From assembly GCA_951406725.2 (NCBI GenBank), contig OX597814.1, positions 176,390,001 through 176,454,000 on the forward strand: a stretch of 64,000 nt of DNA. Direction: 5' to 3'. Below the pieces are notes generated by a model. The model had not been told where the DNA came from and made no database searches. It was given only the letters and a program-made list of their open reading frames with translations. Position 1 is the first letter of the stretch. Each line of letters begins with the position of its first letter. Positions 2,339 through 6,084 of the stretch are shown here, in pieces. A program made the position numbers and the translations under genes. Origin of the DNA: Octopus vulgaris (Eukaryota).

Positions 2339-3130
2339 TCTTTTTTTATTTGTTCCAGACATTGGACTACGTCCATGCTGGGGCAACCTTTTTAAAGAAT
2401 TATTTTCGATTGTATCGCCCCAGTAATTACTCTTAAGTACTTGCGTGTATATGTATGTACCCATGTATGTGTATGTGTATGTGCGTGCGTGCGTGCGTGC
2501 GTGCGTGCGTGAGTGCACGCGCGTGTGTAAGTGCGTGCGCAAGCATATTAATATTCGAGCGGTAATTAACGTGTCACTACAGATAGTGCGATAGCGTCGG
2601 GGCAGTAATATAGACGCACATTGTTATTAAACCAACACAGCAGAGGTTTACCGAATCGATACGGCGAAATGTAAAGTATTCTCTGGAGAACCACTTTCAG
2701 AATTATCGTAGTGAATGATCTGCACATATAATATGTATTGCAAAACTGAATATTTGGTTACTAAAATGTCCACAACATCATATTAGTGAAGATATGCTGT
2801 CACGGCTCTTGTCATCACAATAAGATAACGGGAGAATCTCGATACGCTTGCTTGACTTGCTGAAATTTGTAGCGACATCTCCCTCAAAATCTATCTTAAA
2901 AAAGTGACACATTGGTTAAATGTAGTCCTTTAATATTTCTGCTCTGTCAAGGCTGATCTTCAATACAAACAACTGCAGATGCGACAAATCACTCGACCTT
3001 ATAGAAATAACAGCCAGATTTTTCCTCTAATCACAACCTGCCGTCTTTAAAAGAAAAAGGAATCGAACTCACGACATTGCGATCGTCAGCCGATTACCCT
3101 AACCACTAAGCCACGCTGATGGAAAAGACA

Positions 3131-4506
3131 TGTAGTGAATCTTGCATGCATGAAGTGGATTCGATCCACCACAGCCAAATTTCAATTAACACTGGAACAG
3201 AACTTTTCCCACGATGGAACAATGGTTTTTCTCTGACAGCAGTTTTACATCTTGCAGATGCCTTCAGCTAGGCTGAAGTAATGTCTTCACCACTTGACCC
3301 TTTCTAACCTCTTCTACTTCACCAAAAGCTAGAATAGAGATAACAAGACCACCAACTAAATCTATTTCCAATGGTATGTCTATCCTTCTGGATTGTTATA
3401 AAAGCAAGAATACCCAAAACAAAAATCAGTTAGTTACCAGCCGGTGACGACTCAACCAAGTTCGTCACATCGTGACGACTCAATTAGTTAGGGAACGGAC
3501 TGCTAGAATCATGATCACAAAGAAATGCAGCAACAGAAGATAATGGTCCGCGAGAGAAATGAAGTTTACTGTCAGCAACTCTCACTAGCTCTAATTACTG
3601 TCACACAACTCTCACTGGCTCTAATTCTGTTCTCTTACAACATCATTCTATCTCTCTCTGTAATTACTACTACTAAACAATGAAGAGGAAGCAAACACAA
3701 ACTTTACTTCGCATGCTTTTGGATTTATTATAACCTGCCCGTCGAAGCAAGGTATTTGTAACGTAACGGTAAATAAGTACTTTCTTAAAACTTAATACAT
3801 TGTCTATCTTTCACATCCTACAGTATGCGATTATAACAACAAATAATTATCGTCACACCAGCTGACTACGACATCATCATATTAATGTTTACAAATCAAC
3901 ATCTCGTTACAATTGGTGACTTCGACAATTCATAATATTGTTTTCAAATCAAATTCGGTCGTTACAATTGGTGACTCCGACTAATCAATATAATGTTTAC
4001 AATTGGTGACCCTCGACTTCGAACGAAAGGATTAACCGTTACAATTTGATGACCCCGTGGAAAAAGAATCCTAGATGGAAGCACTCCGTCGGTCACGACG
4101 ACGAGGGTTCCGGTTGATCCGAATTAACGGAACAGCCTGCTCGTAAAATTAACGTGTAAGTGGTTGAGCATTCCACAGACACGTGTACCCTTAACGTAGT
4201 TCTCGGGGATATTCAGCGTGACACAGAGAGTGACAAGGCCGGCCCTTTGAAATACAGGTACAACAGAAACAGGAAGTAAGAGTGAGAGAGAGTTGTGGTG
4301 AAAGAGTACAGCAGGGATCGCCACCATCCCCTGCCGGAGCCTCGTGGAGCTTTAGGTGTTTTCGCTCAATAAACACTCACAACGCCCGGTCTGGGAATCG
4401 AAACCGCGATCCTATGACCGCGAGTCCGCTGCCCTAACTACTGGGCCATTGCGCCTCCACGGAAAAAGAATCACAGCCTTCTGAAACAGCAGAACCAACC
4501 GTTACA
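3131..4506 (+). mobile_element. Solo LTR (probably Gypsy-type) with nested SINE
   Basis: Starts TGTAG at 3131, ends GTTACA at 4506, 4-bp TSD GACA (3127-3130 and 4507-4510); internal tRNA-Trp PBS-like motifs. Confidence 0.7.
4071..4460 (-). mobile_element. tRNA-derived SINE family A, full length
   Basis: Head gtggaggcgcaatggcccagt (A box) ... ggtttcgattccc (B box); 12-bp TSD GGAAAAAGAATC at 4059-4070 and 4461-4472. Confidence 0.9.
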
Positions 4507-6084
4507 GACAGGATAGTTATGACTGGAATGAATTTGATCATAAATCTAGTGGATCAATGATGACCTGGGGTTAAACAACAACAAAACATTCTCATTAAAT
4601 ATAAATACCTAAGATGAGTTGTAATTAAGATTATAATTTTCGGCTTTATTTTCAATAATTACATCTACTCTACTTTTTGATCAGCTTGATTCCTAATTGT
4701 CCTCAGGTGTCTTATTCCAGGATATGCTCAGAGTGTCAAACTGGGTTCAAACTTGGCAAGTTTGTTGCTGAGCTTAAAAAACATAAAGGAAGCGTTATAA
4801 TATTTCTGATCCGGGGTACGCAATTGAGGCCGTATTAAATTAAAATAGCCATATATGTAACACACTTAATGTATGTACACTGCTGATAGACCAGTTATTG
4901 CAGCATTCGTCCTAAGATAAGATCTCTTATGGACGTGCTGCGTTAAAAACATGATAAACATCGGAAGAAGACTAAAAATTGCCGCAGCAGCGTCGGTGAC
5001 ATCATCGATAAAAGTTTTACTCCCCTTTGTATAGAAATAAAGGTTACTAATTAAAATCCAATCTGGACAGCGTACACATCCAAGAACAAGATACCCGATG
5101 ACAGCAGTAGATGAAATCTATGTTTTCATGTTTTTCAGTTTACTGTAGCTAGTTTAATGTTTTGACATGCCGATGCCCCCCAGCGAACGCGCTGTTTTCT
5201 GGTTGGCTGAAAATTCTGAAAATTATCAAACTTTGAACACTGTAACATTTTTGCGAAATTTTTCTGAAAAAAATTAATAACAAATTCGGATTCAGCATTA
5301 AAGATTACATCTATATGATACATTAAAAAAAAAAATTTTATAGATAACTGTAAACAGTGACGAAAACCACAAAGATCCGAATAATGTAGTCCTAGATTAT
5401 ATAAAGTCAGAAAAAAAACCCATATCGTCACGAATGGCATGCCTTTAGTTTATAAGCCTGTTCGTTCAGGGTTGGTCTGAGACCAAACAACAACAACAAC
5501 AGCAATTACTACATAAATACAGCGATAGGTTAATGAACCACTAATGAAGCCTCTATATGGTGTCTCGCCATAAAAGAAATAGTAGTCAAATCTCTCTTAG
5601 AAGAATACATTAGATATTGTACTCCTAGATACACTATGCTTTCCAAAATATAGGATAGTCACGGCCGATCTTTGACTACTCAGCAACAACAATATCCAGA
5701 ACAGCGACTATTGTTACTAAATGTGTGTGTGTGTGTGTGTGCATGCATGCATGTGTGTGTGTGTGTGTGCATGTGTGCGTGTTGGGGGTATGTGTATAGG
5801 TATATACGTATATGTATATATGTGTGTGTTAGTGTGTGTTTATATATTTTAGAAACTATACCAATAATGATGACATTTTACAACACGTAAAAAAATACAA
5901 AATTAATTTAGATTCAGTATATAGAAACATGAATTTAAATAATAACGTAGAAAAAAATTATATATAGTAAAAAGAAAAAGCCTGTTTAATTATTCGATAT
6001 TACATGAAATGCGAGCCGAGCTGTCGAGGACGGGTCTTTTAAAATTTCATAAAAATCGTATTTACCGTATATTTTTAGGAAATT

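Follow-up and report, generated by a model that had tools for sequence, protein, structure and literature searches.

A solo LTR with a serial array of primer-site units in Octopus vulgaris and the probable growth of its U5 from primer-tRNA copies

How does a long terminal repeat (LTR) come to carry, several times in a row, a junction of LTR end and primer-binding site (PBS)? The question is raised by an element at positions 3131 to 4506 of a 64,000-nucleotide stretch of the Octopus vulgaris genome (GenBank assembly GCA_951406725.2, contig OX597814.1, positions 176,390,001 to 176,454,000 of the forward strand), hereafter the window. A first-pass annotation, made from the letters of the sequence, had described a solo LTR whose U5 grew by repeatedly absorbing old LTR-end/PBS junctions. 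Our analysis argues for a modified history. The element is probably the solo LTR of a non-coding family, in which a stack of U5 units was born by over-reading of the primer tRNA followed by slip-back, and was absorbed into the LTR when a later primer site was used.

The array in the window and its family

The TG..CA ends and GACA duplication that had been annotated were confirmed. The element begins TGTAGTG at 3131 after GACA (3127..3130) and terminates CCGTTACA at 4506 before the second GACA (4507..4510), 4 bp being the length typical of the family; all features given here lie on the + strand unless stated otherwise. The LTR body (U3, R and core U5; 3131..3857), which is 79–88% identical to about 40 scored copies, terminates in a first attachment (att)-like end, U0. 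A poly(A)-signal-like hexamer at 3772..3777, with A at 3777 in nearly all aligned family contigs, would place the array behind it in U5.

Five units make up this array, and their primer sites were compared with the first 13 nt of the tRNA-Trp complement. Unit A1 (3858..3911), an old and family-wide unit with a decayed primer site (9/13), shows that the faint fifth unit suspected near 3860 is real. Unit A2 (3912..3966) is a second A-type unit with the TGG start of the primer site intact (11/13), and is nearer to the A units of other copies than to A1. Unit A3 (3967..4001) is again A-type, with 12 matches, and is truncated at an inner TGTTTACA. The B-type unit that follows (4002..4043) has a primer site with a 1-nt insertion (9/13), a 7-nt T-loop complement (p=0.09, not significant) and an att end. 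The last unit is of F type and is split by a later-inserted short interspersed element (SINE): its 5' part (4044..4070) holds a primer site at 4047 (10/13), and its 3' part (4473..4506) an 11-nt exact complement (4474-4484) of tRNA-Trp nt 28-38 counted from the 3' end (shuffle p=0.0015), then the terminal att end. F units are also present in leaders and in the 3' LTR of another copy, L007. The nested SINE of the first-pass annotation was recovered at 4059..4472 (no strand assigned) with a 12-bp duplication (4059-4070 and 4461-4472); three more copies lie within the window, and its contig depth is very high.

Four copies of the LTR-end/PBS junction had originally been described. The four TTACA junctions exist, at 3907, 3962, 3997 and 4039, each followed by 2–3 nt and a primer-site-like motif, but the one at 3997 reads as the inner TGTTTACA of a truncated A unit, likely shortened by microhomology deletion, and not as a true LTR end. 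Similarly, the literal motif TGGTGACYYCGAC is exact in two units (3914 and 3969), whereas the third departs from it by a 1-nt insertion and the fourth by a TGA start. A loose att-plus-PBS pattern matched six places in the window, four of them inside 3907-4055; mononucleotide shuffles of the whole window gave a mean of 0.66 and a maximum of 4.

The element belongs, as had been supposed, to a family of LTR retrotransposons that is multi-copy, makes 4-bp duplications and has two-LTR relatives. A search with 3131-4058 gave 42 matches in the same range of identity (40 of 1879 candidates scored), and the 31-nt 5' end of the LTR has 104 exact copies, of which about 90 were retrieved. Once duplicates had been removed, 116 LTR tails remained; these were parsed with seven real units as exemplars, for which we coined the names A, G, B, C, F, D and E. 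The tails comprise 16 5' LTRs running into the interior, 12 3' LTRs behind a polypurine tract, 81 solo-like copies (window included) and 7 without a start. The window copy was excluded from counts, its parse being AAGB because the SINE splits F and the truncated A3 is read as G.

Many family copies lie in or beside TA, TG or TACA microsatellites, which may reflect target preference; 27 of the 80 other solo-like copies were set aside for such flanks, leaving 53. At the parsed end, 28 of these 53 solos show an exact 4-bp duplication (null mean 1.07, maximum 7), and none was found for 3, 5 or 6 bp. The exact duplications stand behind differing last units, namely U0 (2/8), A (15/25), AA (1/1), AG (5/6), AB (2/6) and AGB (3/4), with C (0/2) and AGDE (0/1) giving none. 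One family therefore has several integrase-type LTR ends, and copies that stop at inner units with duplications of their own, which the first-pass annotation had proposed to look for, do exist. The commonest LTR terminus is after unit A (46/91).

Leaders and the absorption of units

Two-LTR copies measure about 2.4–3 kb and have a non-coding interior (for example L035, L111 and L148, with primer site and polypurine tract); their LTR pairs are 83–96% identical where well aligned. The array unit of the leader consists of 2–3 nt, a tRNA-Trp primer site, a linker and a ..GTTACA end. All 16 leaders hold 2–6 such units in the fixed order A, G, B, C, F, D, E, the last unit being E, and unit number, which the first-pass annotation had proposed to compare among copies, is variable in LTRs as well. 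The single primer site beside a fixed LTR end of a canonical LTR retrotransposon is thus not what this family has.

Individual copies connect the leader array with the LTR. L111 reads A-B-C-D-E on its 5' side, whereas its 3' LTR stops after A-B and is followed by a TATA duplication, the two LTRs being 93.8% identical. In L148 the 3' LTR stops after A, directly before F. Among the 3' LTRs preceded by a polypurine tract, three have AB as their final units, one AG and one F; units therefore do become part of the LTR. That the 3' LTRs of L111 and L148 end just before an inner primer site supports the view that U5 lengthens through priming at a later site, and to this extent the growth by priming shift proposed at first stands. 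The units are, however, not simply old junctions swallowed in sequence. They are already arrayed in the leaders of two-LTR copies, where they are common to copies and probably shuffled between them, and fresh units, described below, consist of a new primer-tRNA copy and a re-copied LTR end.

The extra sites had been suggested to serve as alternative priming sites or as decoys for 3' tRNA fragments. The first is the best reading, given the 3' LTRs that end before inner primer sites. As for the second, 3' tRNA fragments target primer sites in mammals (accessible part of PMC12853362), and the octopus sites, which lie in cis, would more simply be extra targets of such fragments than decoys.

The leaders also bear on a different origin for the window copy, as an internally deleted element in which a 5' LTR (3131-3911) and leader array became fused, through a short homology, with the 3' LTR tip. 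A-A-B-F is indeed a leader order (L132/L151): one leader reads A-A-B-F-F-E, like the window array. All units share the same final 7–10 nt, and the five units of the window copy exceed those of any of the 91 other solo or 3' LTRs (maximum 4). L180 (G000:C4:107334283-107335883) resembles such a product: its A-G-D-E units and some 70 nt of interior run into an att end with an exact GGCA duplication behind it. It represents either a copy with an internal deletion or one in which a unit arose within the leader. We nevertheless find this origin improbable for the window copy. The polypurine-preceded 3' LTRs hold AB, AG and F units, so absorption into LTRs occurs, the window copy ends at a native F-unit end (compare L112 and L007), and recombination across about 700 bp of LTR should far outweigh a 10-bp homology.

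Birth of units and the primer tRNA

The identification of tRNA-Trp as the primer was upheld by the octopus's own genome, in which ARAGORN called nine tRNA-Trp(CCA) genes (L171 and L172) that supply the complement. The primer sites of the window element match the complement of the host tRNA 3' end at 9–12 of 13 nt, with no full 18. The two loci form a cluster of at least nine called genes (G000:C6:58.38-58.46 Mb), with about 17 pattern matches in the interval. ARAGORN called no tRNA gene in L168-L170, L173 and L174, three of which are CCA-bearing partial copies and one a degraded gene. A perfect 18-nt PBS behind the terminal LTR end, which the first-pass annotation had proposed to check, occurs in no two-LTR copy of the family; the sites used match about 11–13 nt. 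A perfect 18-nt Trp site behind CGTTACA was found at four loci, all of a different gypsy LTR family.

Complements of mature tRNA-Trp of at least 32 nt, CCA included, were found at 22 genomic places (control 0), and 17 of them follow an LTR-like end by 1–3 nt. They are 32–51 nt long, with four at 37 and four at 39 nt; the latter stop at nt 39, directly in front of the G behind the anticodon, a base which we take to be methylated. Six of the 22 run on into a re-copied LTR end and then flank. Exact 4-bp duplications accompany such units in L244, L246, L248 and L242 (two units), which belong to other Trp-primed (sister) LTR families, and at the junctions of L246 and L248, 3–4 nt are common to the tRNA copy and the LTR tip. 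L250 and L253 are newborn units of the window family itself, the former with a 3/4 bp duplication (one mismatch), the latter with an end 2 nt short. L259, the 3' LTR of a divergent subfamily of the window family, carries a tRNA copy of exactly 18 nt and a new 17-nt end. Fresh units are composed of an LTR end, an 18–41-nt copy of mature tRNA-Trp and a re-copied LTR end.

Three of the 22 places (L252, L255 and L256) represent the leader state, in which the unit is followed by a second primer-like site, and the 3' LTR of L252 ends at the first att. L252/L263, L255 and L256 are very small two-LTR elements of another family, similar to TRIMs (terminal-repeat retrotransposons in miniature), with two primer-like sites in the leader. 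In L260 the 5' LTR end is deleted. Gapped pattern searches listed two matches each, and the looser pattern missed L244, so they are not exhaustive. Elsewhere, L235, L236, L238 and L245 (e.g. G000:C11:24418435) have long tRNA-Trp copies behind another repeat end (..GGAAAAT), which suggests one more element family linked to tRNA-Trp; the L238 sequence folds back behind its tRNA copy.

These tRNA copies are relevant to a more ordinary explanation, in which slippage or unequal crossover on the chromosome duplicated the U5/primer-site junction in tandem, with later divergence and no special reverse-transcription step. Tandem Repeats Finder reports a 55-bp period at the array (2.6 copies, 79%), C-C-C and F-F runs occur, and discordant LTR pairs would suit post-insertion change. 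Tandem duplication cannot, however, supply 32–41 nt of CCA-bearing tRNA between two LTR ends. The A units do not fit it either: the TGG start, present in 1 of 95 first-place A units, is reset in later ones (3 of 4, plus both in the window), and A1 and A2 of the window score 32.5 and 34 against other copies but 28.5 against each other. Because each is closer to other copies than to its neighbor, exchange between elements appears favored over local duplication. Tandem duplication may explain some repeats, but is weakened as the origin of the units, and we regard it as very unlikely in that role.

Older units retain fainter traces of the tRNA. A distal match is found in F (median p 0.02; 9/11 copies at p<0.05) and is borderline in C (p 0.05), units C, F and E retain a stretch matching tRNA nt 27-39 and have lost the T-arm part, and in 12 of 12 D units the best second match is at the tRNA D-arm. 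Unit copies share ancestry, and the distal-match tests are not independent.

The same traces could be taken as signs that the array is under selection as extra tRNA-binding surface, whether as two-part primer sites, as landing sites rescuing over-read plus strands or as 3' tRNA-fragment decoys. Each of the 16 leaders has two or more sites and E as its last unit; units C, D and E are kept in leaders (12, 10 and 16 of 16) and seldom found absorbed (3, 2 and 1 of 91 LTRs). A primer over-extension sequence exists in HIV, according to the accessible part of one source (PMC13191261). Shared ancestry and distal position nonetheless account for these patterns alone, and B binds like C by computed duplex energy (-23.6 vs -24.8) yet is often absorbed; the concept that absorption tracks weak primer binding fits G and A and fails for B. 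Selection of this kind is therefore doubtful. Equally speculative is a broader idea, that of a tRNA-acquiring repeat-spacer array, in which reverse-transcription errors that are dead ends in retroviruses would be rescued as primer-plus-att cassettes beside the LTR, and kept since a gene-less element thereby captures more primer tRNA and salvages over-read plus strands. If true, LTR length would be a heritable, switchable trait, and the genome a fossil record of reverse transcriptase stops on modified tRNA.

The course of events that we consider probable begins with a plus strand that would copy 18 nt of the primer, or about 32–41 nt, jump by short homology to the U5 tip and copy the att end again, giving the junctions seen in fresh units. 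Units would then be stored in the leader behind the 5' LTR, where we find them piled up. As every unit ends in an att motif, priming at site k would give integrable DNA with LTRs that hold units 1 to k-1, consistent with the LTR end points observed. Strand transfer between non-matching primer sites or co-packaged RNAs may duplicate or drop units and reset the TGG start, and once an upstream site had decayed, the unit to which it belongs would be locked into the LTR, as with unit A. For the window copy, priming probably took place behind an F unit of an A-A-A-B-F leader; the copy would then have become a solo LTR and received the SINE.

Several observations weigh against this account. Among the 53 solos, 25 show no exact duplication where the parse ends; some of these stop after short extra units, and others are truncated or mutated. 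Six two-LTR elements have both ends readable, and only L111 and L148 are concordant: the LTR pair of L160 agrees in the last units only, L100 ends at U0 and has no 5' flank available for comparison, and L035 (LTRs 96% identical, yet unit B on the 3' side only) and L114 (5' and 3' units disagree) are discordant. The distal tRNA match is not significant in A, G, B, D and E (0.66, 0.41, 0.60, 0.20 and 0.11), and linker tails resemble other unit ends just slightly above shuffles, so that the origin of A, G and B is proposed by analogy. The four exact newborn cases all come from sister families. Of the 22 long tRNA copies, 13 are without a re-copied end, and some fold back or run into a deleted interior; their lengths are bounded below by the 32-nt cut-off of the search. 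A coding element with the window-family LTR was not found among the 40 candidates scored per search. Finally, a slip in minus-strand synthesis would yield identical junctions.

Helpers, age and known systems

The window-family interior is about 1.4–1.8 kb long, with no recognisable long frame in L035, and all 16 leaders enter the same interior. An autonomous Ty3/gypsy identity was ruled out, as no gag-pol with reverse transcriptase, RNase H and integrase lies between these LTRs in the copies examined. A TRIM identity was also ruled out: the accessible text sets total length below 1000 bp (PMC10886601), and L111 has a length of about 3.1 kb. A sister LTR family has the same TGTAGTG start, CGTTACA-AT end, Trp site and 4-bp duplication as the window family, and contains Pfam reverse transcriptase, RNase H and integrase in gypsy order; its two-LTR member L264 is 77% identical to the window-family interior over 530 nt. 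The window family is non-coding and, to judge from the shared cis signals, likely moved by tRNA-Trp-primed gypsy helpers. In another locus, L033 (G000:C28:20836251-20839276), a gypsy LTR with an 18-nt primer site is joined directly to an integrase end, a second LTR and more pol, which appears to be a deleted or tandem form.

In organism C, one contig spans 3838-4082 with eight differences, and the right junction is crossed by contigs from B, C and D. The insertion and its array therefore predate the split of these organisms from organism A. In a comparison aimed at an empty insertion site, one organism E contig stops at 4506, but the right flank is itself repetitive and loose contig ends are mixed; a raw-read set gave no aligned reads. 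The left flank (3030-3126) is another high-copy repeat, of high depth, and the LTR sits on its edge. In U3, a second variable block (3425-3490) holds GTGACGACTCA repeats whose number and kind vary between copies (45 aligned, 22 of them displayed), and which presumably resemble an AP-1/CRE-like enhancer repeat. Of the 116 tails, 101 contain an inner TGTAACG motif (at 3758-3775 in the window), which is inverted relative to the CGTTACA end; the final 100 bp of the LTR body may represent an older small LTR.

Our findings describe a concrete route by which LTR ends can gain sequence, primer-tRNA copies becoming LTR. They are evidence from nature for the in vivo use of alternative primer sites and for the ability of over-read plus strands to integrate all the same, and from the end points of tRNA copies one can read, in genome sequence, where reverse transcription stopped at tRNA modifications. 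LTR annotation based on a single primer site and a single LTR end for each family will break families of this kind apart or misplace their boundaries. A literature search, which did not extend to Repbase or the majority of subscription journals, gave no account of serial att-plus-PBS arrays or of unit birth from tRNA copies. Taken singly, the components are familiar, being either standard LTR cis signals or known reverse-transcription errors; in the literature searched we did not encounter them fixed as an array, ordered and shuffled, that determines the length of the LTR.

Large retrotransposon derivatives (LARDs) are a type of non-autonomous LTR retrotransposon comparable to the window family. 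The latter resembles gypsy-moved non-autonomous elements, as far as these are described in the accessible text, in having two LTRs, a primer site, a polypurine tract, a non-coding interior and a 4-bp duplication (PMC10886601). It is unlike the TRIM/LARD type in its size of about 2.4–3 kb, its serial primer sites and an LTR 3' end that is not fixed. CRISPR-like arrays, with conserved junction repeats, variable linkers and stable order, are an analogy only: here the captured piece is always the same host tRNA, and no acquisition protein or guide function has been shown.

Retroviruses can also have more than one primer site in the leader, and dual initiation is reportedly frequent, as the title of Voronin and Pathak 2004 has it. 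HIV-1 MAL has a 23-nt partial PBS duplication (PMC3185550), and multiple-PBS revertants of HIV-1 have been obtained (PMC1084362). In the accessible parts of these sources, the HIV-1 duplications are single, partial or engineered and do not repeat an att end, and neither LTR growth nor a family-wide ordered array is seen. Helenus (TRIMp3; Kojima 2024, PMC10886601) likewise has tRNA-derived sequence inside the LTR of a non-autonomous element; in the accessible text this is a Pol III promoter that resembles a tRNA and is not complementary to the element's own PBS, whereas the pieces of the window family come, in antisense, from the 3' part of the primer tRNA itself and recur at the U5 end.

A likeness in the copying step is offered by retroviral primer read-through, which also yields tRNA copies beyond 18 nt. 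According to the accessible parts of two sources, plus-strand synthesis can pass position 58 to later modified bases, including position 37, as a minor product, and in HIV the read-through product stopping at 37 is described as inactive (PMC13191261, PMC8599865). The octopus copies, in contrast, sit in integrated elements with clean ends and become heritable parts of the LTR.
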